The position numbers were made by a program, and so were the translations under genes. Source: Psammoneis japonica (lineage: Eukaryota). Taken from it: 64,000 nucleotides of DNA. The notes beneath the pieces were generated by a model. That model did no database searches. It worked only from the letters and a program-made list of their open reading frames with translations, and was not told the DNA's origin. Location: positions 1-64,000 of the forward strand of contig QPGO01000250.1 of the NCBI GenBank assembly GCA_008632985.1, read 5' to 3'. Positions 2,569-60,500 of the stretch are shown here, piece by piece. Each line of letters begins with the position of its first letter. Within the stretch, counting starts at the first letter, position 1.

Positions 2569-5500
2569 TCTTTTTGTTTCTTTGGACTTAGACTACGTGG
2601 ACATGGCGTGTTCGCACTGGAACTCAGCGGCCATTGTCACCGACTTTTTTGTGGTGACCGTGCAGCGTGCAGTGCGCATTTGCAAACGCGTCGGTCAACT
2701 CCGACCGACTTCTGACGACAGCATGACGACGCAAGCACGGACGCGCCGCGTTGGAGGGAGGAAAAAAATTCTAATTGGCTGCCATGCAGTCCTCAAAGCA
2801 ATCACATAATTTGTGTGATGAGCAGGGCACTGCAAACTGACACATCGTTTGCTCTCATCTTTCTCTCAGAGGAGGATTTGCAGACACCAGGAGTGCATGT
2901 GCACTTTTTGAAGGGCTTGAGTGCAACTCCAGTGGGGAAACCTTGGAGGCATGTTTCGCGAGATGACATCAGCTCTGCACAGGCTTTGGATTTTGGTGAG
3001 CTGTTGGTTGCATCGTCAGGGCGCCACTCAAAAAGTTGTTTCTCATGAGTTGTGGCATCACAGACAAGGGTGCAGTGGCTCTTGCACAGGGGCTCAAGAA
3101 AATCAAAAGCTTGAGAGCTGGCCAAATCTGGGTTCCTTGCAAGAGCTCAATTGGAGAAAAAGGACTTTCTGCAATGCTGGAAACAGGGAGAGGTTTGAGA
3201 GAGGCCTGACATTTTGGCAGCTTTCAAGTTGCAAAAGGTGGCTTGAGGAAATCTGGATGTTTGGGTGATTTGAGCTCAAACAACACGGTCTGACATCTGC
3301 TGCTGTGGCTGCAACTTGTGGACAGTCTCTTGTGATGAATCTGGCAGTTGTGCGTGCACAGATTTGTTTTTTGCTGCACAGCAGGTCCAGTTTGCTGCTG
3401 CACTGTGGACTTCAGCTGTTCATGCTGTGCAAGCCTGCGCTGCATGGTTGGTGCATCAGGCTAAAAAGCGAATCTGCAGAACGGAGTGCTGTCATTGGCA
3501 CAAAGACTTTGGCAGCTTGACACAAATGTGAAAAGCAGCAACATGCATGCCTTCTTCTTAAATTGTGTGTGCTGCACATTGTGAAAACCAACCACTTCTT
3601 TGCTCATGCCGCGCAAAGCTGCACATCAACCACCACATTCAAAAATTCAACTGTTGCTTGAGTTTGGACAAATCCATCAAAAGCACATGCGAGCTTTTGG
3701 CATCAAGAACATGTGAGGTTGTGCACTCAGCCTCCACCACAAATTCTCATGTTTCAGTCTTGTTTGTCATTTGCAAGTTGGTTGAAAGCAACTTGGCCAA
3801 CACAGGCCCTGGTCTGTCAACCATTTGGCAACACCGGCCAGCACACCAGGTCTGGAAAAATGCAAACACAAGAGAAAGCATCACAAGAGTTTGCAAAGCA
3901 ATGGCAATGACAAACAAAGCCCCCTTTTCCAAAACCAAGCTTGGCTTGCTTGTCTGCCCCAATGCACTTGACACCAATTCCCATGACAGCTCAATTGCAG
4001 GTTCCAGCCATTCATTCAGTCATTCACAATCCACTCAAGTTGGTGGCACAAATGTCCAACAGCTTTGGGGCTTTCTCATTCACAACACTGTCAATGAGTG
4101 TGGTTTCCAACACAACACCACAAAAGTGTGGGGACAGACCTGTTGTTGCAGGCACAGCAAACAAATGGCAGTGCAAGAGTGCAACAAACTTACAAAGCAG
4201 CAATGAGAGCATGCAAGACAGGTTTCAGATGACACACAATGTGCAAAAAGAATGTGCCACATGCACAACAAAACCAGCTGTCTTTTGTGCAGGGCATCAC
4301 ATGCCTTTCTGCAGCAACTCACTGCCATGGCACCCTGCCCTCCCTTTGCTTTGTTTGTTGCAGCTGCGACAAATGCATCCAGCACCCCAGTCACATGCAG
4401 ACTCTCCACATCAAACTTGGACAACACAACAGAACATGAAGAAGCCCACAGAATAAAAAGCAAAGTGTGTTTTTGCCATCAAGCTGAGCATGTGTCCATT
4501 CTGGACACTTGCTTCATGCAAGGACACCGTGTGGCAGCTTTGCACCCAGATGCACAGAATGATTCTGCAGACAAATTGATGTGCACAGCATCACTTTCAG
4601 TCTTCTCATCACAACCTGAGTGAGCATTTCTTCCTTTGAACTTGTCTTGACTTTTGCTGCACTTTGGTCAGTTGGCTTGCCACACACATCTCTGCAGTGC
4701 CAGCGTGGACACGTCAAAAGCCACTTTGGAGTTGCTTGTCCATTGACAAGGGTGGCAAACAATGCATGAATTTCAAGGCAATTGTGTGGAACAACACAGG
4801 CTCCTCTCTCTCTCCACATTGCAGTGCTGCACCTCTGTCCAAAATGTCACCATGCACATCTTGCACATCAGCACAAGGAATTGCTGTGTTGTGCAAGTCA
4901 CCACAACAAGTGTGATGCAACAATCAAACAATGCTCCAAGAAAATTCCCAATTTCACCCACGCAATGCTGCATGACAAGATGAGCAATGCATGACAAACA
5001 CAAAAAGGTGTGAGAGGTGTCAGAGCAACAGAGACAGCACAACTTTGAAACAACATAAAATGTTTCTCAAGACTGTCAACAATGCACTGATTCAGTCTAC
5101 CACAGATTTTGGATGAACCACCAGAGCACAAACTGACACAGCCTGTGGCTGAACAACAGCCATGACATGCTCAACAACGTTTTGCACCAGAGCTTGGCAC
5201 AAAAAATGATCAAGGGGCCACAAGAATTTGATTGACATGGTTGTTGGCAAGCTCGGGCATTGGGCATCACATCACCCACTTGCCCAGCTACATTTCAATG
5301 ACTGCACATGCAGACATGGACTTTGCATTCACACCACTTTGAAGACTGTTGCAAGAGGTGCACTGGAAAGGTTTGCTGCATTTTCCATTGTGCAGTTTAG
5401 CAGTTCAATGTAGATTCAAAATTTGCAATGACTGAAAGTTGCAAAATGAGATGGGTGCACATGCAGAGTGTTGCGAAGCAGCTGACTCCAAGCAAGTGCC

Positions 5501-7082
5501 TCATGCACCAAGAGTGTCAGCAAAGGAGCCATGATGCTGTTGCCTGTGACACAAGCAGTGTTCCCCAAGCCACACTTTGCAAAGCTTTGCAGTCCAACAA
5601 TGGTGTCTTTGCACAGTGTCACTCAGAACAGCATTGCGCTCCCATCTGCCTCCCCTGGATCACCTTCATCAGAATCAGCCTGTGCTCCCAGACTCTCATC
5701 ATCACTTTCAGCATCTGCGCATGATCCCCTGCTGCTTTCACCTTTGACATCACTTTCCTCATCATCTCCTTCAAAGCCATCTTTGGCGCCAGTGACCAAT
5801 GATCACCATCTCCAAGGCAGCATGTTGATCCTGAAATGTTGCCACACACAAGCAGACGCCCACACCAAGAACACTTTGCATGTTCCACCAGTGCACTCTG
5901 TGGCACAGCAGTGATCAGATGCTCTGATTGGCCCATGGAGTGTCTGTGAAATGGCAAGCTCACTTGCAGAGCTTTGCCGATTGCAGGACAAGGTCAGGGG
6001 TTCTCGATCCCTTTCTTTTCCACACACACATTCTTCTGCCCTCACTCCAATTCTGCCAGGTTTGGAGCCCCACAATGGACACAAGTCCATCTTTGGCAAC
6101 AATGTTGCTTGTGGCATGAGATGCCGGACATCACCGGCTACAAACTGCGTGGTCATCTGATTGGCAATTTGGGCAGCCTTGCCCAATTTTTTGGAATGTG
6201 AAGTGTGGCTGCATGTGCTCTACATTGGCTCAGATGATGTCACCTGCAAACTTGTGCAGGCAGCCTGCTGGGAAAGACATCCATCTGATTGCATCAAAAA
6301 TTGCCGACAGATGGTGTTTTTCTTGCTTGCTTGACTTTCTGTCTTTTGCATCTTGGACAATCACCTTCCTTTCATCTCTCTCACACCATCATTCACATCT
6401 GCATGGTCCAAACTGAAGACTGCCATTGACAGCCCCAATTGCCAGCATGCCCCTGGGACAGAAACCAGTTGGGTTGCAGTGCATGACCTTGGCCAAAGCA
6501 TTGGCTGAAGTTGGGTTGCTGCAGCTTTGCCAGTTGCAAGATTTGTCAAATCTGTTTGGACAGTGGTCACAGCTGGAGCCAACACATCGTGACAGTGCTT
6601 GCAACAACATTGGAGCTTTGCCTTGTCACCTGAACATGTGAGGAGGTTGCTGCTCAATTGACAGGTGAAGCTGCCAATCTTTGCCAAACTTTTGCCCCTC
6701 TGGTGCATGTCAAATGGGACAGCCCCACCATTCTCACACACGCTGCATGATCCATGGCCAAGACCAACTGCTGCTCGTCTCACTGTCCAAACATGAGCAA
6801 TGCCCAAGTTGAAAGACTGAAATGGAGGAAGTCGGAGAGTGGGGTGCAACAAATTAAATCAAACTCACTTTTTGAGTTTGTCCAACCTTTGCAAGTTTTG
6901 TTTCTTTTTCTTCATGCTTCAATGCCAACAAAGCCACCCCTTCCTCATGTTCATGGTGACAGACAACTTCACATCAAACATTGTGATCCAAGCATTCTCG
7001 CCACAGTTTTTGTGTTCAGAGACCTTCTTGCTCCTGGCTCAATTGAACAGGAGTGCTGATGATCCTTTTCCATGTGTCTGAC
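2569..7082. mobile_element. Dispersed ~4.5 kb repeat, copy 1 (degenerate unclassified element or segmental duplicate), TA/CG-depleted
   Basis: Colinear with 29460-33547 from ctttttgtttctttggacttagactacgtgg to gatccttttccatgtg; no protein domain recognised. Confidence 0.85.
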
Positions 7083-29459: not shown

Positions 29460-32400
29460 TCTTTTTGTTTCTTTGGACTTAGACTACGTGGACATGGCGT
29501 GTTCGCACGGGAAGTCAGCGGCCATTGTCACCGACTTGTGGTGACCGTGCAGTGCGCATTGGCAAACGCGTCGCGGTCGACTCACTCGACTGACTTCTGA
29601 CGACTGCATGACGACGCAAGCACGGACGCTGCGTTGGAGGGAGCACGCGACGGAAAAGAATTCTCATTGGCTGTCATGCAGTCCTCAAAGCAATCACACA
29701 GTTTGTGTGATGAGCAGGGCACTGCAAACTGACACATCGCTTGCTCTCGTCTTTCTCTCAGAGGAGGATTTGCAGACACCAGGGGTGCATGTGCACTTTT
29801 TGAAGGGCTTGAGTGCAACTCCAGAGTGTGGAAACCTTGGAGGTGTGTTTCATGAGATGACACCAGCTCTGTGTGGGCTTTGCCCTTTGGTGAGCTGTTG
29901 GTTGCATCATCAGGGCACCACTCAAAAAGCAGTTTCTCATGAGTTGTGGCATCACAGACAAGGGTGCAGTGGCTCTTGTGCAGGGGCTCAAGAAAATCAA
30001 AAGCTTGAGAGCTAGCCACAAATCTGGGTTCCTTGCAAGAGCTCCATTGGCGAGAAAGGACTTTCTGCAATGCTGGAAATGGGAAGAGATCACAGCCAAA
30101 CAACCACTTTTGTCTTGATTTGCCTGGTCAGACTTGCAACTGCAGCTCACCAGAAGCAAACATGAGCAATCTGATTCATTTCTTTTTCTCACTCAGCCAC
30201 GCTGGCCATCCACATGTGATGTGGGAGATGTGTCTGCACCAGCTGCCTTGTGGCTGTGCATCATGTGGGCAAAAGGAGGAGACATTGACTGTGACCCAAG
30301 TGTGGTGCTTGCAATGGTTTGAGAGAGGCCTGACATTTTGGCAGCTTTCAAGTTGCAAAAGTCTGGAAAAATGCAAACACAAGAAAAAGCATCACAAGAG
30401 TTTGCAAAGCAATGGCAGTGACAAACAAAGCCCCCTTTTCCCAAACCAAGCTTGGCTTGCTTGTCTGCCCAATGCACTTCATGCAAATTCCCATGACAGC
30501 TCAATTGCAGGTTCCAGCCATTCATCGAGCCATTCATCCATTCAAGTTGGTGTGGCACAAATGTCCAACAGCTTTGGGGCTTTCTCATTCACAACACTGT
30601 CAATGAGTGTGGTTGCCAACACAATGCCACAAAGTGTGGGGACAGACCTGATGCTGCAGGCATGGCAAACAAATGGCAGTGCAAGAGTGCAACAAACTCA
30701 CAAAGCAGTGATGAGAGCATGCAAGACAGGTCTCAGATGACACACAATGTGCAAAAAGAATGTGCCATGTGCACAACAAAACCAGCTGTCTTCTGTGCAG
30801 GGCATCACATGCCTTTCTGCAACAACTCCTCACTGCCATGCCCCCCCTGCCCTTCCTTTGCTTTGTTTGTTGCAGCTGTGACAAATGCACCCAGCACCCC
30901 AGTCACATGCAGGCTCTCCACATCAAACTTGGACAACACAACAGAAAATGAAGAAGCCCACAGAATGAAAAGCAAAGTGTGTCTTTGCCATTGAGCTGAG
31001 CATGTGTCCATTCTGGACACTTGCTTCATGCAAGGACACTGTGCAGCAGCTCCACACCCAGATGCACAGAATGGTTCTGCAGACAAACTGACATGCACAG
31101 CATCACTTTCTGTCTTCTCATCACAACCTGAGTGAGCATTTCTTCCTTTGAACTTGTCTTGACTTTTGCTGCACTTTGGTCAGTTGGCTTGCCACACATG
31201 TCTCTGCAGTGCTGGCATGGACATGCCAAAAGCCACTTTGGAGTTGCTTGTCCATTGACAAGGGTGGCAAACAATGCATGAATTTCAAGGCAATTGTGTG
31301 GAACAACACAGGCTCCTCTCTTTCCACATTGCAGTGCTGCACCTCTGTCCAAAATGTTGCTGCGCACATCTTGCACACCAGCACAAGGAATTGCTGTTGT
31401 GAAAGCCACCACAACAAGTGCGATGCAACAATCAAATGATGCTTCAAGAAAATTCCCAATTTCACCCACGCAATGCTGCATGAGAAGATGAGCAGTGCAT
31501 GACAAACACAAAAAGGTGCGGCAGGTGTCAGAGCAACAGAGACAGCACAACTTTCAAACAACACACAATGTTTCTCTCAAGACTGTCAATGATGCACTGA
31601 TTCAGTCTCCCACAGATTTTGGGTGAACCACCAGAGCACAAACTGACACAGCCTGTGGCTGAACAACAGCCATGACATGTGCTCAACAATGTTTTGCACC
31701 AGAGCTTGGCACAAAAAATGATCAAAGGGCCACAAGAACTTGATTGACAGGATTGCTGGGAAGCTCGGGCATTGCACATCACATCACCCACTTGCTCAGC
31801 TGCATTTTAATGTTTGCACATGCAGACATGGACTTTGCATTCACATCACTTTGAAGACTGTTGCAAGAGGTGCACTGGAAAGGTTTGCAACCTTTTCCAT
31901 TGCACAGCTCAGCAGTTCAATGTAGATTCAAAATTTGCAATGACTGAGAGTTGCAAAATGAGATGGATGCACATGCAGAGTGTTGCAAAGCTGCTGACTC
32001 TAAGCAAGTGCCTCATGCACCAAGAGTGTCAGCAAAGGAGCCATGATGCTGTTGCCTGTGACACAAGCAGTGTTCCCCAAGCCACACTTTGCAAAGCTTT
32101 GAGTCCAACAATGGCGTCTTTGCACAGCGTCACTCAGAATGGCCTTGTGCTCCCATCTGCCTTCCCTGGATCACCTTCATTGGAATCAGCCTGTGCCCCC
32201 AGACTCTCATCATCACTTTCAGTGTCTGCACATGAGCCCCGCCAACTTCACTTTTGACATCACTTTCCTGATCATCTCTTTCAAAGCCATCTTTGATGCC
32301 AGTGACCAGTGACTGCAATCTCCAAGGCAGCATGTTGATTCTGAAACATTGCCACACACAAGCAGACACCCACACCTGGAACACTTTGCATGTTCTGTTG

Positions 32401-33547
32401 GTGCACTGTGTTGTGCAGCAGTGATCAGATGCTCTGATTGGTCCACAGTGTGTCTGTAAAAAGGCAAGCTCAGTGGCAGAGCTTTGCCGATTGCAGGATG
32501 AGGTCAGGGGTTCTTGATCCCTCCCTTTTCTTTGCTTCTGCCCTCACTCCAATTGTGCCATGTTTGGAGCCACACAATGGGGACACAAGCCCATCTTTGG
32601 CAATGATGTTGCTTGTGGCATGAGATGCCGGACATCGCTGGCTGCAAATTGCATGGTCATCTGACTGCCAATCTGGGCAGCCTTGCCCAATTTTTTGGAA
32701 TGGGAAGTGCAGCTGCATGTGCTCTACATTGACTCAGATGATGTCACATCCACAAACTTGTGCAGGCAGCCAGCTGGGAAAGACATCCATCTGCGTGCAT
32801 CAAAAATTGCCAACAGATGTTTTTTCTTGACTGCTCAACTTTCTGTCTTTTGCATCTTGGACAATCACCTTCCTTTTCATCTCTCTCACACCATCACTCA
32901 ATTGTCAGCATGCCCCTGGGACAGAAACCAGTTGGGTCGCAGTGCATGACCTTGGCCAAAGCATTGGCTGAGATTGGGTTGCATGCTGCAGCTTTGCCAG
33001 TTGCCAGATTTGCCAAATCTGTTTGGACAGTGGTCACAGCTGGAGCCAACACATCGTGACAGCGCTTGCAACAACATTGGAGCTTTGCCTTGTCACCTGA
33101 ACATGTGAGGAGGTTGCTGCTCAATTGACAGGTGAAGCTGCCAATCTTTGCCAAACTCTTGCCCCTCTGGTGCATGTCAAATGGGACAGTCCCACCATTC
33201 TCACACACACTGCATGATCCATGGCCAAGACCAACTGCTGCTCTCACTGTCCAAACATGAGCAATGCCCAAGTTGAAAGACTGAAATGGAAGAAGTTGGA
33301 GAATGGGGTGCAACGAATTAAATCAAACTCACTTTTTGAGTTTGCCCAACCTTTGCAAGTTTCATTTCTTCCTCTCCATGCTTCAATGCCAACAAAGCCA
33401 CCCCTTTCTCACATCAATGGTGACAGATGACTTGACATCGAACATTGTGATCCAAGCAATCTCACAACAGTTTTTGTGTTCAGAGATCATTCTTGCCCCT
33501 GGCTCAATTGAACAGGAGTGCTGGTGATCCTTTTCCATGTGCCTGAC
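29460..33547. mobile_element. Dispersed repeat copy 2, same orientation as 2569-7082, TA/CG-depleted
   Basis: Colinear with copy 1; lacks copy-1 segment ~3238-3849 and carries ~30088-30316, which copy 1 lacks. Confidence 0.85.
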
Positions 33548-41632: not shown

Positions 41633-43609
41633 TAGACGGCATCTCTAGCTTGTACTATTTCCTATATTTTCTCAACATTCGGTTTCACATGGAGTTGAGG
41701 ACGAAAATGCCAAATCAAAATAGGAAGCAGTAGTGTTGCAAGGGGGCACAAAGGAGGGAAGGTGCTGCGTGGGTTTCCAAGTGTTTTCCAATCGACCACT
41801 TCCGTGAAACGTCCAGCGAGAAAAATATAAGGCCCGTCAATAGATTTGATCCATGTAAACAAACTGCACCCAGCAAAATCCAAGAATATGCGGCAATAAT
41901 GATTTCATGTCAATCGCGTTGTCTGAAAGGAGCTCGACTGAGACTAAAGATCGCACCACCGAACCTGACATTCCGAAGAAGAATGACGGCTTTTTGGTCC
42001 GGCTGGAGCTGTGGATTCGTGTTGCTTGACCCAAGAAACAAAAGAAGCGATAGAGTCGATGCAATCAACAAGGAGAAGCAGTACAGATTCTGTCGCTTTT
42101 GTCGTCTCAAAGTAATACTGCGCCACCTGACAGTGGCAGTGTGACGGAGGTAGAGCCTGTAGCTGCGCCTGTTTTTTCTGCCCGCGACAATGAGCCATGA
42201 TGGCTCTTGAAGACGACGATCGAGACTCCAAGAACGATTAAAACGACGATGCTGTCGCCACTGCACAAGTTGAGGATGATTCAAGTTCTGTTGCTTTGTC
42301 TGAAACAAACTCTAGACTAAAGATTGCACCGCGATACAGCCTGATCCACCGCCAATCTTTTCCAACAACAACTTCATACTTTTTCCATACTCGCCACGCC
42401 GGCTGTGTTGGCCTTGCAGCCCTGGCAGCAGCTTGGAGGAGCGCGTTGCCGAATTAGAACATGAGAATATTCTCATAAAATATGGAGGCTCGAAGATCTC
42501 TAGAAGCAATTCTCGGAGGCCAGTACGTGCAAGATCACTCGTGGTCGAGTGTCACAGTTTTACAGTGTGCTGTGCTTTGCGTCCCTCAACGTTTCACACG
42601 GCACAAGGAGTGAATGTTATGATCAATTGTCTGCAGCCCTGCAGGTCCGTTGCAGAGAGCAAAGATCTGGGAAGCACGCGGGTTCATTGGTCGACAAGCG
42701 CAGATCCTACTAGATTCAAGGTGTCGAGCGGCGTGCCAGCCACCTCAACCATTATTCTCTACACCTCTCGTCCCATAAAAGCATGTGCATTTGTGGTTGA
42801 TCCACACAATCGTCTAGATTCTCGTCGATACCCACTCAGATTCTTTACAGTCAAAGGACAGAGGATTATGATGACATTCTGAAAAGCGGGTTGTCAAGAG
42901 CGCGAGCATCCCATAAAGTATCACGTTTCCTTCCCAACCAGAAGGTCATGTGGTCGTTGCACTTATTTGTCTCGTCATTCGCTCGTGTGCCACATCAAGC
43001 ATTCTACACGGATGCGTAATGAGATGCAAAAAGAAGAGGCAAGGTATGTGTCGTTCTCACACTTCAGAACCAGGCGATCCAAACGCAAGAAGCACAAAAG
43101 ATAGGAATTGTCGACTGGTTCTGCTATCCTGTATCCGAGCTCTGAGCTTCACTATCCCGAATCGCGACGCGAGTTGCTAGAACTTGTTGGAGTGGGGTTA
43201 CCCTCCATCACTGTCTTGATAAACTCGCGCTCGAAGTCTTTTCACGCCACAATCCAAATCAAGCTCGTGGTTTAGAATTAAGTCTCGTCAGAACTGCAGA
43301 GACGCAGTTAAACCTACGATGAACGGTTGAAGGAATGGTACAATGGCATCAGATCTCTTTTCCATAGACGATGACCGACAGCCCGAGACTGTCTTCGAGC
43401 ACGCAAGCATACAACGAAATACCGGAAAGCAATCCTCAGCTACTATTCTTACATTTATCATCTCTTATTCAATGGACCTCTACGGCTACACTGGCTTTCA
43501 ATCGGTTGCCATTCATTCCACTTCTTTCAGGTGCAGGCTCCACACTCGCATTTTCCCAAGACCTGTCACGTCATCAGTTTCAATGATGCTCGTTGATAGT
43601 CTTCTGCTC

Positions 43610-45030
43610 TCATTTCGGGAAGGCAAACTCTCCAAGTTTATGATAGTTTTCGCCAGTGTTCAAAGCTGAAGTGCGCATGTTTCTTCCAGCGTGAAGCCGA
43701 ATTTTTGTTCCGGTTGGCGGGTCGTCGGCTCGGACGGTGATTTCGTATGAGGCGGACTTCAACACCCGAACTTTCATTTCCTGGATGGCTCCGACCTCCT
43801 TGAAAAACGTGTTTGACCAGGTCACACCGTTTTCTCCTTTCATGCGGCATACATAGTCCATCTCAAGGTAAGGCTCTTCAACGCCAGGGAGGCCAATCAC
43901 CTGGACAGGATCGCTCCAGGCGTGAGGATCTTGCGGACCCTTTCAATTTCAGAAAAATCATGATGCCGCATACTACGAAACTTCACAGGGAGGACGTCTT
44001 TTAGGTTGTTTTCCTGTTTGGGATCCAGAAGAGATCAAACAAATGCCAATCGCCCTCGTGAAACACAACTACCCATTTACCCACCACAAGGCAGCTGCTC
44101 CTGTCATGCAGTGGCAAGGCACACTTCTTGGTGAAGCGGTAGTACCATCCATCCTCAGCCAAATGGGCCCTAATCCCTCCCGTCTCCGCCGTGAGGTATG
44201 CACGATGTTGTGGCCAGTCAGCGTTGTCACGAACAAGCAAGGGTCGCAAACTATGACCGGTCAATGGTGGAAGGCTTTTATCCGCTATGCGATCCAACAA
44301 ACCCCGCAAAGCTTAGAAGTGTGGGAGGGGGAAAGATGTCGTACACCCCAAGCATTTCCCTTTCTAGATCTCAGACCCGTCGGATTGCGTGCGGCCCACT
44401 CGGTTTCATTAAGCGTATAAACTTCTCCAGTCATCCTCCACCTTCCTATCCCAAATGTGGAGTCTTGTTTTTGGAGTAGGACCGTTATCGCCGAAAAACA
44501 GCACGATAGTATCGTCAGACAGGTCATTTCTCTCCAATTCTTGAAGAACCCTCCAACCTGAAAATCGAGTTGGTCGATCATCCCGAGGAGTATTGAGTAT
44601 GATTTCTCCAATCCCCATTCGCATGTACTTCTTCTGGAGCCTCGTCTGGCAGTTCCATGGTTCATGAGGCTGGGCACATGGAAGGTAGAGAAAAAACTTG
44701 TCTTCTTTATGCCGCTTTGTGAAATCGATTGCTTTGTCCGTGACCCTCTCATCCTGCCAGCCCAGTTCATACCAACACATGTGCCGTTGCGAGCAAATGG
44801 CGCGTTGTAGTGATCGCACTTACCCAAACCGACTCTCCGCCTTCTGTCACTTCCTACATTTCGTCAAAGCCACGGCGGATCGGTCGTTCAGCATCCGATG
44901 AGCCAAGGTTCCATTTGCCAACCATTCCTGTTACATGTCCAGCATCCTGTAAGGCTTCGCCGAGCAAGTGCTCGTCAAGGTGTGGTGCATCTCCCCCAAA
45001 ACCAACTGCAGCCGTTCCCGTGCGCATGAA
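43610..45030 (-). pseudogene. Arylsulfatase A-like gene, multiply frameshifted, catalytic N-terminus not found
   Basis: [70 protein letters not shown] and WHLFDL in different frames; no CxPxR motif seen. Confidence 0.85.
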
Positions 45031-46185
45031 ATTCCCATTGAATTTGTGCTAGAAGAAATCAAGGGCGTGTGGATTCATGGAATTGGTGAATGCAGAGGCT
45101 TGTGCGCCTGTGTCTCAAAGCCTGAGCTTTGGAAGAGACAATGCAGCCAATGCTGATGGAGACTTTGCACCTTGCTTGGGAACAACAGTGGAACACACCA
45201 CAAGCAACAAAACAAGTTGTGCCCATTTAACTCAAGACCAAGTCTCTTTGCCCCAGACTCCGTAGAATCAAACAGAGCTTGCACACAGCAACCCAGGCCC
45301 ATCTCAACTTTTGCCGTGCAACTGCAGGATCAAGATCATCATGAGCCTGTGCTGCTCTTGTGGAATTGCCATCTGATGAGCACACTGCAGTTGAGACCAT
45401 TGCTGCTGTGGATGGTGTCAGAAGCACAAGCTTTCAGCCATCACATGTCCATGTGAATGGCTCACAGAAGCAGTCAATGCTGCAATGACAGCAGCCATGA
45501 CATGCGGCAGGTTGCTCCCATTGGATGACTTGACACAGTCTTGGCAAAAGCTGTCCCATGATGGGCCAAGTTCAAGAAGAAGATGTGCCATTGTTCAGTG
45601 CCTTCCAGAAGGACATGATGAGTGCCATTGCAGAGACTTTGATCAACAAGCCACAAGCAGCATTGACCCAACTGGAAGACATGAGAAAGTGCAAAGCTGG
45701 TGGCAGAAATGAAGAGAACTTTTTATGATGAGGACTGCACACCTCTGTCAATGACAACACGATGGCTTGGGCAATGCGCAACAACTCACCACAATGCGGA
45801 CATTTCTCTCTTCTTTGCCAAGCAGTGACAAACCTTTTGCTTCTTCTGGCAACAAGTGAAAAGGCATTTCTTCCTCCACTTCATCTTGAAGAGGCACCCA
45901 AGAAAAGCCCCAAGGACAGTGAAAGGAACAGAAAGCATCCTCTGAATTCAAGAAGACGTCCAGTGGCATTGGCACGTTCTTCTTGGAGAAGCAGAGAAAC
46001 AACAGCACTGCTCAAGGTGCTTCATTTTGGTTCTGGCATGATTGTCTCTGTTGCGGTGTTGCAAACACCAAATGCAAAGCTGTGGTTTGCATTCCAATGA
46101 TTCTGTTCATCTCAATCATTGCACAGGAAACCTTGTCAGGCAAATCCCTTCCCCCCAACAGTGTCCTGCCAGCAGCATTGTGGGT

Positions 46186-47030
46186 CCACCACCCACATTT
46201 TTGTTTTGGAATGGTGTGCAGATTTGGTGGAACAAGTCCAGCTTGTTGGGGTCATTGCAGCTCCAAATTGATGGCACTCTGGACCAGCTGACTGATTTGA
46301 TGCACTTGGATCTGTGTTTGGGTGTGACTTGGTTCTGCAGCTCATCATTTCCCATGGATGAATTGCACATTTTGACAGCCACCTTTTTGACACCATGTGA
46401 CTGGCATTGCTCATGTTGTTTGGGAGTGACATGGCCCAAGTGATCTTGGGCTCAAATGGAGACATTGTTGTGTTTGGTGTTTTCATCCACAACAATGTCA
46501 AATTGTCTGCTTCTCAAGGCTTGTTCCAACTGCCTTTTGCTCTCTTTCTTGGAGTGTTGATGTGGTTGAGTGGCATTGCCAAATTCTTGTGGATTTGGGG
46601 CAAAGTTGGCTTTGTGGCCAGTGTTGTTGACTGAAGCTTGGATGAAAGGGAGGAGATGCCATTGTCGCTCTTGACACTGCTTGTGTTGGCAGATTTGGCT
46701 GATTCTGACTGCCTCCAACGCAGCTGCTGCACCAGAGGGGATTTGGATTTCGTCGTTGTCATCATCGCTGCTGCTGCCATCATCGCAACTGGCAGGGTTG
46801 TTCTTTTGCCAAGTTCTTGTCACAAATGGCTTGTGGCAACATGGCACAGAGTGATGCAATGCATTTTCCAACTTTGCCACCACCATGACGAAACGTGGCT
46901 GCTGACTTGTGTGTTGTTTTTGTTGCCACTTGTTGCATGGCACCATCTTTTGCAAAAGGCCCCACCTCCTTTTTTTGCTCATTTCTTTCTCATCAGAGGA
47001 TGAATCACAAGTCTCCAACAAGTCCATCAT
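46186..47030 (-). pseudogene. PRCC-like (MAD2B-interacting family) gene relic inside a TA-depleted domain
   Basis: N-terminus MDLLETCDSSSDE (cf. MSLVAYxSSDE); C-terminus HQISQLVQSAINLELQ*...KQKCGWW (cf. KHQI..L...A...E...KYG[WF]*); frameshifts. Confidence 0.7.
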
Positions 47031-47787
47031 TTGCAGACAATGTCAAGATGAAGCAGAGCACGACACCAGACGGCACCTGCTCTCTGGCACAAGTTGTCAC
47101 AAAGGCATGTGTTGTGTTTTGTGCCATGGTCTCTCCACTCATCGTGCTTTCAACTGAAGCATGTGGACTTCAGCACTCTTCTGCATGCAAGAGCTCATGG
47201 CTGGAGTGCCCCACATGTTGCAGAGATGTCACAAAGGCATGACAAAAACTCACACCATTTGCACTGGAAAAAATGGGCTGTTGTCATGATGGTCACGATC
47301 GTCACAATCGGGGTTGCCAAAAACAACAAATTTGAGCTCTTGGCTTTGGCACTTTCCAGGCAGGGAACTTTTTGTTCATGGGTGTGGTGTGCTGTCCATG
47401 CACTTGTGTGTTGGCACTTGATGGCCTGCAACGGTTTGATCTGAGCACAGATGCACAGAAACAAACCCAGCTGCCCGTTTGGCCTTAAATTTGAGAGCTG
47501 AGTGGGCAGACCCGTGTGCCCCAGCTGGAGATTTTGCTCTGACTTGCCTGGCAGAGCAAGACACCAGACTGTTGATGTTGGAATTTGCCAAGACATCTTG
47601 CAAAAACAGGAGCATGCCCAAGTTTCTCACACCTGTCAGGTGCAGGAGCCACAAAAAGAGGCACCAAGTGACAGACAGGTCTCTGCCACAGCAGCTCTGC
47701 CAGGCAGCAGTCACACTGGCGACTGTCGCTGCAGCGACCTGAGTTTGGTTGTGCCAGTGGCCACGATCAACGAGGTGGAGTGGTTGT

Positions 47788-47998
47788 CCACGGCCAGCCG
47801 CCGCTCACCGCGGGGATGTTTGTGTTGTCAACTTCTTGCATTTCAAAAGAGTGTGCTGCATGTGATCTTGACAAGCGCGCGCCCGCTGATGGATGACAAT
47901 CGTGTGAATTTGAACTTGTCTGAACGGGGCCACAAATGAGTGAAACAACAATCGGAGGCAGGTGCATTGCATTGCTGAAAGACACCTTTTTGCCAACA
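47788..47998 (+). repeat. Mutated paralog of the upstream region (52505-52790) of the Cys-rich gene
   Basis: Shared blocks ccacggcca, gctcaccgcgggg, caagcgcgcgcccgc.gatggatgaca.tcgtgtgaatt, tgcattgcat..tgctgaaagac and tttgccaaca. Confidence 0.85.
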
Positions 47999-48014
47999 GC
48001 CAGGTCATGCCCGA

Positions 48015-48317
48015 GTGTTCCAGTGCCACAACTCTACAGATCGTTGGGTCCAAACAGGAAAGGGCATTAACCAACTTGCTGCTGACGATGCTTTTGGCCA
48101 CTCTGTGTCTCTCTCATACGCGGGATACATTCTTGCCGTGGGAACGCCGTCTGACACCACCGAAAAAGGCTTTAATTCAGGATCAGCGAGATTGTTCCGA
48201 TACAGTCGTGCCACATCATCCTGGCAGCAGCTTGGACAGACCCTTCTCGCTCAAGCACAAGGAGAGTGGTTTGGCGAAAACTATGTAAATGATGTAGAAA
48301 CCATGTACCAATCGTGA
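48015..48317 (+). pseudogene. FG-GAP (integrin-alpha-like propeller) repeat fragment
   Basis: WVQTGKGI...DAFGHSVSLSYAGYILAVGTP...GSARLFRY...WQQLGQTL...EWFGEN; only about 1.3 repeats. Confidence 0.7.
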
Positions 48318-51197: not shown

Positions 51198-52504
51198 CTC
51201 AGTTCTGTGAACAAGGCATCCACAATGCCTTTTGCAAGCAGCAGCACTTTTTTAGAGGATGCATCAGCAAGGGGGGAATCTTTGTCAACTGCAAGCAGCA
51301 GCTCATCTTTTTGCTGAGATTGAAGATCATTTTCGATGTTCTCTTCTTTGGGCTGTTTTTTCTGAACTTTTTCTGCTTGCTTCAACTGACCTTGACAAGA
51401 CATTTTGTTTTCATCCAACTTGCCAGCATTTGTCAAGTGAAAAGAATGCTGTCTGAACAGTCAAGTGTTGCATTTTTCAGAACAATCAGAGCGCCTTTGC
51501 AGGTCTTGAGGTCAGCAGTGACGCAGGCTTTGCATGTTTGTGTGGTCACTTTGCTCAAGTTTCATCCACCAAACTGATTTTCACTTTTTGCCCAAAACAC
51601 CCCGCACAACATTGCAGCACAAAGAGCAAAGAGTTGTGACGTTGGTGAGCTGCAGTGCATGGGAGCTGCATTTCAGCACGACCACCTGGTGATCAAACCA
51701 TTCGGAACATCTGCCGGAAGAGGCCATGCAAGCAGCCTTTGGGAAGTGGGGTGTGGCTCAAGGCCAGAGCCTGTCTTTGACAACTTCTTTGGCATCAGCA
51801 TGGAGGCAATTGATGCACTGAATTCTTCCTGGCCACCAGCACCACTCTGTGGACAAAACCATGATCTCGCGCTTCCCGCGGAAAAATCCAATCTGTCTCC
51901 CACAGTCAACCCGCTCGTTGCGTGCCGGGAGCCCCACAATGCCGCACCATCCAATCCACACCCTTGCAACATGAGCTCCAGCCAGCAATCCAGGTGACTC
52001 TTGACAAACTCGCCAACACAAAATCACTTTCGCTGGCACTTGTTTGTTGTTCCTGATGACCACACTGATGCTGTTGCTCGCTGTCGACCTGGATCCTTTG
52101 TGTGCTGCAACTCCTGCAATGCCTGGTCCAAAGCTCAGCCCAACATCACGCGGCGGTTGTTTGCCACAAAATGTGACATGAGATCTGTCGAGGCTGGGCC
52201 AATTGTGGGCTTGTCAAAGGATCCATGTCCTTGTCGGGCGATGGCACACTGTGAGTTTTGACCCAAGAGCGCAAAGCAGCAACGTTCTTGCTGATGAACG
52301 GCGACTCACCATCTTCGTTCAGTGACTTTCACGTGTTTTTTTGCATTGAGATTGTTGGAGGCAGACAAAAACGAAGGAAGGAAGCGTTTTTCAGCAGGCC
52401 CTGCTGCCGCAGCCAGAACCTGCTTAAAGATGACGTCACAGTGCAAAATGCCATTTGTAGCTCGCTGCGCGACGCGGCCGAGTCGTCGTCCGGCCGTCGT
52501 CCAG

Positions 52505-54912: not shown

Positions 54913-57900
54913 ATGATTATAGCGCGTAACAAAGCGGCTTTATTCTACCTCTTCCTTGGTTTGGTCTTCCTTGGAGCCAAACAAGTCTCTGCTCAATGTA
55001 CGATATGCGGCGCGGGTCAGACCTTACCGTTTCCTGACCGTAAGGTAATCGTAGAAGGAGCCAACGTGGCCACCTGTGCAGAGCTGGAAGCCGAAGCAGC
55101 GGCTGATGCATCTCTGTGTTCGGGATTGACCGACTTTGCTTTCTACTGTGGTTGCTCAGATACGCCCGCATGCTCACTCTGTGGGGAAGACACGACAATT
55201 CTAGAGGAGAAAGAAAATCTGGTATTGACTGGGTTGGAGCCCAGCTGGTTCCCGTCTAATGAGCAATACACCTGCCTGGTGGCTCAAGGTATTGTTTCGC
55301 TGGAAACAAGTGGTGATGCTGCCTGTCAAGCAGAGCGAGATAGTCTCGAAACTATTCAGCAGTTCTGTGGTTGCGTCGCTATGCCGTTTTACAATTGCAC
55401 AACCGTTTGCCCAGACGAGACCTTGGTAGATCCAGCGTATCGAGACGTTCAGGCCTTGGTTGAGCATCCTAGCCTCGGCTATGAAAGCTTCACGTGTGGC
55501 GAACTTGATTTGTTCGCATCTTTCGGTACCTTGTGGGGAGCCGAATGTGACGCTGCTAATTACATTGGAATAAAAAAATGCGGTTGTGCACCGCCTAATC
55601 GGCCTTACTGCGATTTGTGCGAAGATGGCAGTGTTCCGGCGGACCTTAGCACCAACATCACTTATGAAATGACATGCTACGAATACGCTGGAGATGCTTA
55701 CTTCCTTAACGAGGGTGACGACTTTTGCAATGCGTTGAAAGGAGTAGCTGGTATTTACTGCGGATGCGACAATCCAGTCGCATCAGTGGGCGCCTGCCGT
55801 ATCTGTGATGTGCCAGGTGGATTAGTGGTTCCTGACTCGAACCGAACTCTTGCGGTTGGCGACTCCTTTGTTGACTGTGGTGAACTCGAGATTCTTGGAT
55901 CAGATCCAACCAATGACTACGGTTTGCTCTGTGAGGACATGCAGGATATTGGGCAAGAAGCCTGTTGCTATGATTTTACAACAGTGCCAGAGGTGGCGGA
56001 CACCTCATCACCGACGACGAAACCAACGCTCCCACCTACTGCCGCGCCTACGGCAAAGCCAAGTGCTGCCCCAGTTGCGGCAGCAACACCACCACCAACA
56101 GGATCGCCTACCCTTGCTCCTGTCGCGGCGACAACACCTCCCCCCACTACAGTCCCTGTGGCGTCAGCTACGCCTCCTCCGAGTACTGCACCTGTGGCGT
56201 CAGCAACGCCTCCCCCGACAACTGCACCCGTGGCGGCAACAACGCCTCCCCCGACTACGGCACCCGTGGCGGCAGCAACGCCTCCCCCGAGTACTGCACC
56301 AGTGGCGGGAGCAACGCCTGCAGCAACGCCCTCACCAACGACAAAGCCTATAGACGCCACATCGCAGCCTACAGAACTTGTTCAGGGCGCCCCACCAAAT
56401 CCAACCGCATCTCCAACAGCCAAGCCAACAGAAGATCTGGGTGATAACACCGCATTCCCGACGGCCGAACCAACAGCGGAGTTGGGTCCAGGTGCGGGCA
56501 CAGGCGGGGAGACGACCTCCCCACCGGTGGTTGCAGGAAATGCCGGCGACGATTGCACTATCTGTGGACCAGAAGTGCCGTTGCCTGTTTCTGGCGCAAC
56601 CATTTACAAAGAAGGATTTGAGAATGTAACTTGTTCTGAAATGGAGCTTGCAGCCACCTTAGATGACAGTCTTTGTCCCGACCTCGCGTCTTTTGCCTTC
56701 TCTTGTGGGTGTCCCGATGTTGAACCTACCTGCACCATGTGTGAGGGAGGCGGTCGGATTCCAGCTGGCTATCAAGATTTGGTGCTGAATGGTATGGCTC
56801 CCGACTGGTTCCCGGTTGATGAAGACTTCACTTGCGGGGAATTGGAGCGTATTATCTCGGTCGCACACAACAGCACTGAATGTTTTGAAGACTATGAGCC
56901 ATTCGCGACACTTTGCGGTTGTTATGCGCCCCCGGACAACAACTGTACGTCTCTATGTCCCGATGGTACCATAATTGATCCCCTGTTTAGTGATTCCTTG
57001 ATTGTTGAGAACCATCCCATGCTCGGCACCATGACCTGTTCGCAATTTCAGCTATTGGTGGCTGATGGAGATCTGACTCTCGCACAATGTGACTCTGCGA
57101 ACTATGCTGGAATTAAGTATTGTGGTTGTCAAGAGACAATATCATTTTGCGATATTTGTGAGGATGGCAGTAAGCCGTTGTTTCTCGAGAGGGAAATTAC
57201 ATTCGCTAAAACTTGTCTGGACCATGCTGGCGACGGATACTTGCTTACTCCTGACGATGCCTTGTGCCAGGTCTATCGTGCAACCTTTGGAGAGTCTTGT
57301 GGGTGTGACAATCCCATTGCCTCGGCCGACACGTGTCGCATCTGTGACGCCGTCGGTGGCGTTGGTGTGCCCGACTCCAACTATACGATCGAAATTGATG
57401 GCGAACCAATCCAGTGCGGAGAGCTAGAGTTTCTTGCCAATATTCCAGGCTCTAACTTTACCTGCGACATTGCTACCGCGTTGGGGGAAGAGTGTTGCAG
57501 TGTCACCATGTCTCCCACCGCTGCACCCGAAAGATGTACCGTTTGTAGAAATGGATTACTTCCCTTTCCAGAACGTCAGATCTTTGGAGAAGGCTTCGAA
57601 AATGTCACCTGCGGTAGTCTCGAGGCCAGAGCGACAGCCAACGAAACGCTTTGTGGTGATCTTGCCCAGTACGAGTTTTATTGTGGATGTGCTGATGCTG
57701 ACTCGCCTTGTCCGTTGTGTGTCGTCGGCAACTCTACTCCCAAGGAGTCATTGGTTCTCAAAGGCTACGCTCCATCGTGGTTTCCAGCTGATGGCAACTA
57801 CACCTGTGGTGTAGAAGCGCAGTTGCGGTCTCTACAGAGAATCGAGTCCCAATGTTCATCGGCAACAAGCGGACTGGAGGACGTTTCCACTTTATGCGGG

Positions 57901-58761
57901 TGCTCGGTACCTGAATCGTCGAGCTGTTCCTCCCTTTGTCCTGATGGAACTCTGATTGATCCAAGCTTCAACAACGTCATGGTGATCGAAAATCACCCCG
58001 AGATCGGCAATATTTCATGCTTTGATTACCAGTTGTTGGCCTCTAGTGGCGGTTTGACTGCCGCAGAATGCGACGCAGCGCACTATGTGGGTATCAAGAT
58101 TTGCGGTTGCAACGAGACCCGCCCGTTCTGCGACATCTGTGAAGACGGCTCCGTCCCATCCGATCTGGCAAAGGAGGTCACGTTTGGCAAAACCTGCCTT
58201 GATCACGCAGCCGACGCTTATTTTACAAATCCGAACGAAGATTTGTGCAAAGCTATACAAGCAAGCTATGGCGAGTACTGCATGTGCAACAACGTCTTGG
58301 CTGGGCAGGATGCGTGCCGCATATGCCCTGGTGGTGCAGCCGTCGCCAATTCGAACTACACTGTCAGAATTGGTAACTTTTCAGTTGATTGCGGAAACCT
58401 AGAGTTTACGGGAAATGATCCTGCTGCAGCATTTACATGTGACCATGTGAGGGCGTTTGGTCCTGAATGCTGTGGGCCGACGGACCCGCCGACAAGCGGT
58501 CCGACTAGCATTGCTACCTCGAGTCCAACTAGCGCTGCTACTCAAACTCCAACCAGCGTTGATACTTCTGATCCAGCTCCTTTCTCCAGTGGCAGAGAGG
58601 GCGTACTCGAGCAACAAGGGTCTCCGCCTCCCGTTCCTGAAACGAATGGGGCGCTGTTTTCACCGACTTCAGGCGGCAAAAGTATCCTGGTCAGCAGAAG
58701 CACACCTCTTGGCCTAGTCAGTTTCTTCCTCTTAGGAAGCCTGGCTGGTCTCGTTCTGTAG
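54913..58761 (+). CDS. Large secreted/surface Cys-rich repeat protein (1282 aa from ATG 54913), paralog of the preceding gene
   Basis: Signal peptide MIIARNKAALFYLFLGLVFLGAKQVSA; three ~330-aa Cys-rich super-repeats; mucin-like linker; hydrophobic C-terminal tail. Confidence 0.92.
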   Translation: MIIARNKAALFYLFLGLVFLGAKQVSAQCTICGAGQTLPFPDRKVIVEGANVATCAELEAEAAADASLCSGLTDFAFYCGCSDTPACSLCGEDTTILEEKENLVLTGLEPSWFPSNEQYTCLVAQGIVSLETSGDAACQAERDSLETIQQFCGCVAMPFYNCTTVCPDETLVDPAYRDVQALVEHPSLGYESFTCGELDLFASFGTLWGAECDAANYIGIKKCGCAPPNRPYCDLCEDGSVPADLSTNITYEMTCYEYAGDAYFLNEGDDFCNALKGVAGIYCGCDNPVASVGACRICDVPGGLVVPDSNRTLAVGDSFVDCGELEILGSDPTNDYGLLCEDMQDIGQEACCYDFTTVPEVADTSSPTTKPTLPPTAAPTAKPSAAPVAAATPPPTGSPTLAPVAATTPPPTTVPVASATPPPSTAPVASATPPPTTAPVAATTPPPTTAPVAAATPPPSTAPVAGATPAATPSPTTKPIDATSQPTELVQGAPPNPTASPTAKPTEDLGDNTAFPTAEPTAELGPGAGTGGETTSPPVVAGNAGDDCTICGPEVPLPVSGATIYKEGFENVTCSEMELAATLDDSLCPDLASFAFSCGCPDVEPTCTMCEGGGRIPAGYQDLVLNGMAPDWFPVDEDFTCGELERIISVAHNSTECFEDYEPFATLCGCYAPPDNNCTSLCPDGTIIDPLFSDSLIVENHPMLGTMTCSQFQLLVADGDLTLAQCDSANYAGIKYCGCQETISFCDICEDGSKPLFLEREITFAKTCLDHAGDGYLLTPDDALCQVYRATFGESCGCDNPIASADTCRICDAVGGVGVPDSNYTIEIDGEPIQCGELEFLANIPGSNFTCDIATALGEECCSVTMSPTAAPERCTVCRNGLLPFPERQIFGEGFENVTCGSLEARATANETLCGDLAQYEFYCGCADADSPCPLCVVGNSTPKESLVLKGYAPSWFPADGNYTCGVEAQLRSLQRIESQCSSATSGLEDVSTLCGCSVPESSSCSSLCPDGTLIDPSFNNVMVIENHPEIGNISCFDYQLLASSGGLTAAECDAAHYVGIKICGCNETRPFCDICEDGSVPSDLAKEVTFGKTCLDHAADAYFTNPNEDLCKAIQASYGEYCMCNNVLAGQDACRICPGGAAVANSNYTVRIGNFSVDCGNLEFTGNDPAAAFTCDHVRAFGPECCGPTDPPTSGPTSIATSSPTSAATQTPTSVDTSDPAPFSSGREGVLEQQGSPPPVPETNGALFSPTSGGKSILVSRSTPLGLVSFFLLGSLAGLVL
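56065..56325 (+). repeat. 39-bp coding tandem repeat (TAPVAxxTPPPx), about 6 copies
   Basis: actgcacc.gtggcg.cagcaacgcctcccccg units visible in DNA and protein. Confidence 0.9.
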
Positions 58762-60500
58762 TCGAAGCATATTCCTTGGAGACGACGGTCACCTTGGGAC
58801 GGTACTATTTTGTTTACATAAAGATTGTAGGGAATACATCTGTAAAAGTTCATTACATAAGTTCGATGTAACAGCTCCGTTTCGCTGTTTTCTTGAATTG
58901 ATCTAGAAGATCGTCTCAGGCATTAGTGAGGTGTACTCAACGAAGTTTGCCGGGAACATCTAAACGCATCACCTTCCACGTCCAGAGCGGGAGCAATTTG
59001 CTAAGCTCTTCTTCTAACTCTGGATTTTTGTCACCGTTGTCGATCTCTCAATCCCTCTGAAAACTTGATAAGCCTTTTTTAAAAATGACTTTGCAGCCGT
59101 AGAGCTTTTTCTTTTTTGCGTTTGACGCATCTTTTGTTGGCAAAAAGGCTTGGCAGGCGACCTGCTTGCATGCATTGCTAATGTAACTACGGTGCCTGTG
59201 TTTCTTGGGGACCCTTCATGTACGGCACGATATTCCGAAGCAAATCACCGAACGATTTCGTATTGGTAGGATGCATCCACCATATCCAGCAGATCGAGCT
59301 CGTTCCCTACATCTCTGTAAGAAGGAGGCGCAAATAGACTCAGATTGTGGGCCATATTCATTTGATCGGTACCCTTTCCACTTGTGGAGGCTGGTCCGTC
59401 CAGCCTGAGGGTCTTGAATTACCGCAAATCGAGCGGGGAACTATCAAGACCAAAACTTTCCATTCACGATCTCCAAGACACTACTACGTGAAACTCGATT
59501 GGCAAAAGTCAGAGGGGGTGTGTTCTCAGATATAGGAACGAAAAAGCTTTCCAACAAATACTTCGCCTCTGCTCCTGCAATTTTCCCGTCAAGTGCGAGA
59601 GCGACATCTGAATTTGCTTCTCTTCTGGCAAGCCAAAAGAAAGTCCATAAGTCATTCAGGTCTGTCAAAACTGAAACGACAGAATGTTTGGGGTTTGGGC
59701 ACGCCGCTGTTAAGTGTGTCACCGACTGCCTGCGGGGTGTGATCCTTCTCCCGTAAGTTCTTGGGTCGCTCTTCAATTCAAGCAGGACTTCAGTTTTTTT
59801 TAACTGGGCACAGAGTTAAAGAGCCCATTGAGAAGGACGGGGAACAGAAGAAGGAGGCACGGAAGTGGCTGCACCAGTGGAAGGGATGCATGATGCATGA
59901 TGCAGCTGTGGGGCGCTTGGCAGAAGGCGGAAAGGAGGAGCGCGCGAAGAGCGGAGCATCTCTACAGTATGATAGCTAGAGGAAAGATGATGCGCCAGCC
60001 AGGTTGCAGCCAGATGTTCTGAATGGCCCACGACACGTGCCGCCAAAGCGAGCGGTTCCGGCAAGCTTTTCGTGCTAGTTGGTGGTTCGTGTTCGCACAA
60101 CCCTTCTCAACGGACATTACTTAGGGTAACCTCGGGTTGACCTGTACCATATTGCGATACTGCTAGTTTTCTAGACCTCTAGAAAAATCGCAATAACAAA
60201 TTGATTCTCTTTTGTGGATAGCCAATCTCTAGAAAAGTAGCATTATTACATGCATGCGATGTATGTCCGTTGCATCCAAATTTTAAAAGAGACAAGGCCA
60301 ACGAAACAGCACATCAAATGCCATTGCGGCCGCACTCTTCACCATGGCCAGCAAACGTGGTAGCAACGGTGGCGCCAGGAAAGGTGCTGGATGGCCTCGC
60401 ATTTCCATGACTCCTCATGGGAAGTGGAAAGAGTTTCTTTCGAGGTGAGTTGGGGGGGGGGGGGCTGCTGGAGAGAAAGCCCCGTTCGAAGCCGTGCCAG

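Follow-up and report, generated by a model that had tools for sequence, protein, structure and literature searches.

Can a mutational process that erases the dinucleotide TpA reach copies of a cell's own genes, and not only transposons? The question is raised by a locus of the diatom Psammoneis japonica, located in a 64,000-nucleotide stretch of contig QPGO01000250.1 (assembly GCA_008632985.1) that is hereafter termed the window. An initial annotation described positions 46186 to 47030 as a whole copy of a PRCC-like host gene with Tyr to Cys, Arg to stop, and stop to Trp changes, and attributed these to two arms of one process (TA to TG/CA and CG to TG/CA) acting on an ordinary cellular gene copy.

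An intact PRCC-like gene and its pseudogene

The copy lies on the minus strand (47027-46186), where an ATG at 47027 starts MDLLETCDSSSDE and the end at 46186 reads ...CTG CAA TGA...AAA TGT GGG TGG TGG, in agreement with the letters originally quoted; the plus-strand reading of 46186-47030 gave nothing meaningful. A search of the organism's own genome with the copy returned seven matches, comprising the window itself, an intact gene on C8 (two blocks), and degraded copies on C25, on C43, and at 176.5 kb of C8. The intact paralog is the gene at G000:C8:160191-161477, a continuous open reading frame (ORF) of 428 amino acids that begins MDLLGTYDSSSDE and ends in KRKYGW and a stop. The copy and its surroundings in the window comprise the following features:

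43518-45038, minus strand: left flank, a sulfatase pseudogene of a multi-copy family, 5'-truncated and frameshifted (PF00884), TA- and CG-normal up to the junction.
45036-48034, no strand: TpA-erased patch with mosaic; 5 TA in 2999 bases, observed/expected TA 0.026 and CG 0.26 (flanks: TA 0.50-0.53, CG 0.85-0.90).
45036-45561, plus strand: melibiase (GH36) gene fragment; TA-normal parent at C13:695069-695452, the rest matching sister mosaics; PF02065 on the parent; 12/12 TA lost.
45641-46071, plus strand: 3'-end fragment of an SBNO (strawberry-notch) helicase gene; TA-normal parent at C41:670-1092; PF13871/PF13872 on the parent; 13/13 TA lost.
46186-46594, minus strand: 3' block of the PRCC-like pseudogene (parent nt 872-1287), with Y345H, Y354C, Y367C, Y426C, Q338 to stop, R404 to stop, and stop to W; 15/15 TA and 16/16 CG lost.
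46615-47027, minus strand: 5' block of the PRCC-like pseudogene (parent nt 1-430), frameshifted from parent nt 52; 12/12 TA and 21/22 CG lost.
47028-47343, minus strand: copied upstream region of the parent (to C8:159941); 9/9 TA lost in 47028-47214.
47344-47864, no strand: TA-poor stretch of about 520 bases, with no second copy among the genome matches listed.

Every codon change that had been named holds in the parent-copy codon table. Y7 and Y426 changed from TAT to TGT, Y354 and Y367 from TAC to TGC, and Y345 from TAT to CAT, such that none of the five alignable Tyr codons was kept (four to Cys, one to His); R404 changed from CGA to TGA, Q338 from CAA to TGA, and the parental TAG stop to TGG. 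The description of the copy as whole, however, does not hold, since only 262 of the 428 parental codons align, about 440 nt of the parent's middle (parent nt ~431-871) are gone, and the frame is broken by 10 more indels, beginning after parent nt 52. With its middle deleted, its frame shifted, two stops in the parental frame, and the terminal stop lost, the copy has no intact reading frame and is a pseudogene of the intact C8 gene. About 250 nt of DNA upstream of the parent gene were copied along with it, which points to duplication at the DNA level rather than to a processed mRNA copy. Intron loss or retrocopying was also considered for the missing middle and was rejected, since the parent ORF runs through that region and upstream DNA was copied.

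The copy is covered by Logan contigs of a public sequencing run (X1), with two differences listed within it; neither restores a TA. These contigs (277-807 bases) match the patch with zero to two other letters each and bridge two junctions, namely the sulfatase junction and the internal deletion. Run X1 is possibly the window's own sample, its library not being on record, and it serves as a check of the letters and not as independent support; two other runs (X2, a small share with 8 records; X3, 0 records) add little. At window position 46719, run X1 has T where the window keeps the C of the surviving CG, one more CpG loss that is possibly allelic.

Membership of the parent in the PRCC family is likely but borderline. 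In a profile search of the genome, the parent scored 24.3 bits against PF10253, equal to the curated cut-off, whereas hmmscan of the 428-amino-acid protein did not list PF10253, and the copy's ORF likewise had no PRCC match in a direct Pfam scan. A homolog of the parent (P0011) matched PF10253 at 35 bits (E 3.3e-8), and 8 of the 23 aligned family members matched it at E<=0.05. Of the 22 homologs, one bears a Skeletonema name and two belong to a protist transcriptome set; the homologs and the parent have the C-terminal domain and KYGW end in common. We take the family motif to be an N-terminal acidic Y-S-x-x-D and a C-terminal KYG followed by F or W; the parent agrees with it at both ends. The KYGW terminus is present in 23/23 alignment rows (Y426, G427, and W428 are invariant), and Y7 and Y367 are each kept in at least 90% of the 23 rows. 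A PDB search with the family alignment gave 0 matches at E<=1. These observations favour the proposed homology for the parent, itself barely at the family cut-off; the copy is a non-coding relic. Nearly all homologs keep Tyr at Y7, Y367, and Y426, and the alignment indicates that Tyr is the ancestral state. The conserved parent and its 22 homologs fix the direction of mutation.

Loss of TpA and CpG, sequence context, and candidate enzymes

At gap-free sites, none of the 29 parental TA steps was kept in the copy (16 became CA, 9 TG, and 4 other steps, none CG), and only 1 of 40 CG steps was kept (29 became TG/CA). Control steps were mostly unchanged (40/43 TG and 66/74 CA), and about 11% of other sites differ between copy and parent. 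The 842 bases of the copy contain no TA, compared to 55 in the 1287-base parent coding sequence. The loss of TA and CG is far beyond chance. When 10 parent-copy alignments were pooled, A to G changes were found at 386 of 946 sites after T versus 4-7% after other bases, and C to T changes at 261 of 1316 sites before G versus 4-7% otherwise. The two strands were struck equally (119 TG vs 116 CA in set A). A process that converts TA to TG/CA thus reached a host-gene copy in which no transposon sequence was recognised, with 25 of its 29 TA steps so converted.

The relationship between TA and CG loss was evaluated in 33 segment pairs. Four young copies (4.5-5.5% background divergence) lost 222/269 TA (83%) and 101/443 CG (23%), with a fifth, half-struck young copy (44/88 TA kept) omitted from this test, while three pairs of intact genes lost 39/272 TA and 67/427 CG (16%). 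The young copies have a small CG excess over background (Fisher p=0.01 for 23% vs 16% lost). Spearman correlation with background divergence gave rho 0.78 for CG loss and 0.63 for TA loss over 24 rows (two window blocks merged; the three intact pairs excluded, as were five pairs that were short or crossed an edge), where shared ancestry among copies makes the rows non-independent and the p-values too small. No significant 4-mer strand preference was detected for CG loss. CpG decay is therefore separate from, and slower than, TpA loss, and the two are not arms of one process as initially thought; the window copy is old and saturated for both steps, which accounts for that reading.

At 492 resolved sites, the mutated A was followed by C in 205 cases, T in 152, G in 85, and A in 50, compared to C 100, T 157, G 120, and A 115 on the spared strand (sets A and B, which partly cover the same parental segments in different copies). 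Five of six non-palindromic 4-mer pairs were skewed at p<0.003: ATAC 66 vs GTAT 26, CTAC 63 vs GTAG 21, TTAC 36 vs GTAA 13, TTAT 52 vs ATAA 25, and TTAG 18 vs CTAA 3, the exception being CTAT 41 vs ATAG 33. The most retained contexts were TTAA, foremost, and CTAA/TTAG, with GTAC among the least retained, indicating that the context effect is on the 3' side; the paired test cannot split 5' from 3' effects, and this split rests on retention counts from overlapping copies. In a third set of 61 sites (hit C 20, T 22, G 14, A 5 vs spared C 15, T 14, G 15, A 17), avoidance of TAA clearly replicates and the advantage of TAC is weak.

The preference for a 3' pyrimidine and the avoidance of TAA hint at a DNA deaminase of the TadA/ADAT2 type. 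Native TadA is described as dependent on UACG (PMC12296453), and TadA/ADAT2 are described as preferring ACG and ADARs as preferring UAG (PMC10661471), such that the UA/UACG context reported for TadA/ADAT2 and TadA-derived base editors resembles the TAC/TAT preference in this genome. According to the same descriptions, the natural enzymes edit tRNA, and the genes encoded here are candidates known from sequence: a TadA-like gene (C38:7.2-7.9 kb), an ADAT2-like gene (C26:119.7-120.7 kb), two A_deamin genes (C40, C79), and other deaminases, all labelled from a reading of sequence motifs. The genome search revealed no deaminase expansion, and the genes resemble an ordinary tRNA-editing set. The C5-methyltransferase family had 29 matches in the genome, several of them broken and one Cys/His-rich as if TA-erased. 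At G000:C34:43.4-45.8 kb, a chromodomain adjoins a C5 DNA-methylase domain, as has been described for DNMT4 of diatoms, a possible relative of RID (PMC9998398). Among the ORFs listed, no SNF2 part followed two weak methylase matches, and DNMT5 was thus not identified among these.

The mosaic patch and the edges of mutation

The copy's patch is one of about seven TA-poor patches in the window and is a mosaic of about 3 kb of host-gene fragments (melibiase, SBNO, and PRCC-like) with about ten sister loci. Sister mosaics are located on C8 (64-69 kb, and 162-177 kb immediately behind the parent), C43, C25, C35, C10, C22, and C331, and they also carry a piece of a flavoprotein gene from C13. The mosaic pieces derive from at least four unlinked loci and recur at about ten places; on C8 and C43 they form head-to-tail arrays whose last units are intact. 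Neither a terminal repeat nor a transposase was recognised in the window patch when five junctions were inspected by eye and Pfam was scanned. The Pfam scan of 96 window ORFs yielded two matches (isocitrate lyase and sulfatase), none within a TA-poor patch, and that of 10 other window ORFs yielded two F-box proteins and no transposon domain. The view of the locus as an ordinary cellular gene copy can accordingly be retained in part: the origin from a host gene is established by the intact C8 parent, but the copy is a piece of a dispersed gene-fragment mosaic whose carrier is possibly a non-autonomous transposon.

Several other elements accompany these mosaics. A multi-copy gene of about 354 amino acids (G000:C8:177241-178302; copies at C8:273k and on C35, C41, C43, and C58) is found with most sister mosaics, probably encodes a signal peptide (judged by eye), has a PDZ-like neighbour, and exists in both TA-normal and TA-erased copies; it had no Pfam match over the cut-off and no usable Atlas match. 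A 1.7-kb insertion that splits a mosaic unit (G000:C8:163404-165084) carries a frame of 508 amino acids that had no support from Pfam but may, by its motifs, resemble a hAT transposase. A TA-free stretch in the flank of the parent gene (G000:C8:161800-162027) is nearly identical to its counterpart in the C43 copy (C43:112551-112780) while the rest differs by 15%, which suggests either that it was mutated before copying or that it was gene-converted. Two dispersed repeat families (at least about 20 and more than 30 matches) are located at edges of TA-poor patches (window 52246-52460 and 48002-48243), the latter reading like a possible beta-propeller repeat gene.

Copies resolve the same TA sites differently. 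Compared to C43, the window has 4 same and 8 opposite resolutions; compared to C25, it has 4 same and 4 opposite in the PRCC-like segment and 8 and 4, respectively, in SBNO. This suggests that most mutation took place after dispersal. With several melibiase copies, by contrast, the window shares most resolutions (up to 9 same and 1 opposite), and context bias or shared history may account for this. Already-mutated DNA was apparently also duplicated again, judging from window 3850-7082 and 30361-33547, which are 90% identical TA-free copies that agree at 644 TG/CA steps and are opposite at 31. On C11, a TA-normal repeat of about 290 bp (349494-349780 of G000:C11; 22-23 TA) lies inside a TA-erased block, is flanked by 96-bp direct repeats that are 98% identical, and has TA-erased relatives elsewhere; it looks like a late insertion that is yet to be hit and could serve as a timing control.

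All parents examined are TA-normal, and intact paralogs that are 90-95% identical over 1.5-3.9 kb (the three pairs above) are nearly untouched. The duplicate of window 57429-59098 at C251:68427-70128, which corresponds to part of a Cys-rich ORF of 1317 amino acids, contains a sharp edge: 38/38 TA were changed before column ~1320 and 16/16 were kept after it. Likewise, TA loss in the C11 melibiase duplicate fades at its end, with the edge inside the homology. Patches that are only partly hit are located at C8:170.2-172.4 kb and at 55 kb of C35. Collectively, the TA-normal parents, the spared paralogs, and the edges inside homology fit a chromosomal domain and not pairing, and the alignments suggest that targeting probably follows the former rather than homology. 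Parents may have been spared by selection rather than by targeting, an account that explains redundant paralogs and internal edges less well than it does single-copy parents. The sulfatase pseudogene that abuts the patch provides an internal control, since it is not hypermutated although it is dead and multi-copy; a dead or duplicated state is thus not sufficient for targeting.

Competing explanations, known systems, and implications

We consider the best overall explanation, to which we assign a probability of about 0.6, to be duplication of the gene into a mosaic followed by domain-targeted deamination of TpA. The historical part of this account is very nearly secure, namely duplication as DNA, loss of the middle and the frame, conversion of TpA to TpG/CpA on both strands to saturation, sharp edges, and a separate CpG decay. 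A single intact PRCC-like gene was duplicated as DNA, together with the upstream segment, into a dispersed mosaic of host-gene fragments, and the window copy lost its middle and frame. A process acting on both strands then turned TpA into TpG/CpA to saturation while sparing the parents and most near-identical intact paralogs. The patch may have been marked as a silent chromatin domain, to which an adenine deaminase specific for TpA could be recruited, a TadA/ADAT2-like enzyme that would favour TAC/TAT and avoid TAA. Such an enzyme would make hypoxanthine in DNA that replication would fix as G, and TA to CG would be almost absent because one strand is fixed per site. Loss of CpG would reflect ordinary deamination of 5-methylcytosine in the same domain.

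The identity of the chemistry is less firmly placed than the targeting, and we regard a deaminase as an even bet. The same targeting could instead operate through base modification at TpA, whether of adenine (N6-methyladenine) or of thymine (oxidised or otherwise modified), or through domain-specific error-prone repair that yields T:A to C:G, which we consider rather unlikely. Modified thymine and 6mA do occur in protists, the genome holds the 29 methyltransferase-family matches, and no dedicated or expanded deaminase was found in the genome search. From sequence, moreover, a lesion of A and a lesion of T are indistinguishable at a palindromic TA, such that A to G and T to C are not separable. 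Against other chemistries, the near-absolute dinucleotide specificity combined with a graded flanking preference is reminiscent of an enzyme's active site, as is the preferred context of the substrate described for TadA (PMC12296453, PMC10661471). A deaminase of the ADAR type that edited RNA later fixed by reverse transcription would account for the 5' U preference typical of ADARs (PMC10661471) and could draw on the two A_deamin genes, but both strands are equally affected within one copy, upstream DNA is included, and a 3' G is not favoured; we regard this as highly improbable. Slightly less credible still is a base-calling or assembly artefact at modified bases, since the same site is resolved differently in different copies, the copy differs further by 11% other substitutions and by many indels, and the X1 contigs match the patch as described above, even if that run may be the window's own sample with its library not on record.

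What was targeted admits a stronger competitor, compatible with either chemistry, in which a non-autonomous transposon (Helitron- or Pack-type) carried the copy and the process hits mobile DNA only. This is a real possibility, though it falls short of even odds. Elements of this type capture pieces of several unlinked genes and occur in several copies. The same is true of the mosaic, whose pieces come from at least four unlinked loci at about ten places with arrays on C8 and C43, are gene ends with their middles deleted, and adjoin 520 patch bases without an assigned origin. Yet the shared termini, target-site signature, and transposase of such elements were not recognised at the five junctions inspected by eye (the left end may be deleted), unit ends lie within coding sequence, the copy number is low (12-14 matches), and plain single-gene duplicates (the C11 melibiase and C251:68427-70128) were struck as well. 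A version of RIP in reverse, in which homologous pairing of duplicates triggers mutation, is improbable: all pieces of the patch that could be assigned are duplicates, and the C34 locus has the DNMT4-type architecture that may be RID-related (PMC9998398), but parents are TA-normal, intact paralogs at 90-95% identity lost only 39/272 TA, mutation edges fall inside homology, and the struck region in Bigelowiella natans is described as single-copy (bioRxiv 10.64898/2026.01.13.699255). A single coupled process that removes TpA and CpG together is a shade more improbable than this. In its favour, the window copy has lost both steps, TA and CG vary together along the window, and CG loss in young copies is slightly raised; however, young copies lost 83% of TA vs 23% of CG, CG loss tracks background divergence (rho 0.78 over the 24 non-independent rows), and CG shows no significant 4-mer strand preference.

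Domain-targeted deamination of TpA has its closest counterpart in B. natans, for which TpA hypermutation was measured as it arose de novo in the integrated DNA of NCLDVs and virophages; the process was unsaturated and was read as a defence against foreign DNA, with an ADAT2-type deaminase proposed but not shown, and many TpA-poor coding sequences carry host-type domains (Mettrop et al., bioRxiv 10.64898/2026.01.13.699255). As far as the description in that preprint goes, the two systems are alike in that A to G/T to C changes are confined to TpA, affect both strands, and form discrete regions, and B. natans has genome-wide clusters poor in TpA. They differ in that the P. japonica case is inferred from paralogs, is saturated, and involves native gene fragments (PRCC-like, SBNO, and melibiase); the viral or foreign origin of the B. 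natans targets has no equivalent among the assignable pieces of this patch, of which 520 bases lack an assigned origin. The main text of the preprint does not contain the words 'diatom', 'CpG', or 'paralog'. Beyond its description, the P. japonica case offers mutation of native sequence to saturation, domain limits, a preference for the base 3' of the mutated A, and CpG decay that is uncoupled from TpA loss. A literature search, in which coverage of subscription papers was incomplete, returned no paper on TpA erasure in diatoms, and B. natans was the sole printed match found.

RIP of ascomycetes mutates both copies of a duplication, its extent is set by homology, and it depends on RID/DIM-2 methyltransferases and on the sexual cycle. 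In P. japonica, by comparison, parents are TA-normal and intact pairs kept most TA, possibly through selection on parents, and edges lie inside homologous stretches. Like RIP as described, the process inactivates duplicated sequence, including host genes, through dense transitions at a specific dinucleotide, while the polarity is opposite, as C to T changes in RIP create TpA and the process here removes it (PMC7882544). DNMT5-dependent CG methylation of transposons has been described in diatoms (PMC9998398); it would explain the slow decay of CG to TG/CA in the patches but not the loss of TpA.

The PRCC-like pseudogene is in itself ordinary, and its interest lies in the codon-level record it provides of TpA hypermutation reaching the cell's own genes. 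This shifts the TpA process from 'anti-viral editing' towards a general defence that acts on silent domains, and survival of duplicate genes becomes position-dependent. The flanking-base preference, together with a short list of deaminase genes, makes the candidate enzyme testable, and an enzyme that naturally deaminates adenine in chromosomal DNA would be relevant to base editing. We tentatively suggest, at less than even odds, that diatoms may hold a natural, chromatin-guided DNA adenine editor of the TadA/ADAT2 type that erases TpA in any silenced domain, native duplicates included. If true, diatoms and a rhizarian alga would share a counterpart of RIP that is limited to heterochromatin and opposite in polarity, and the fate of a duplicate would be set by where it lands rather than by foreignness or pairing.
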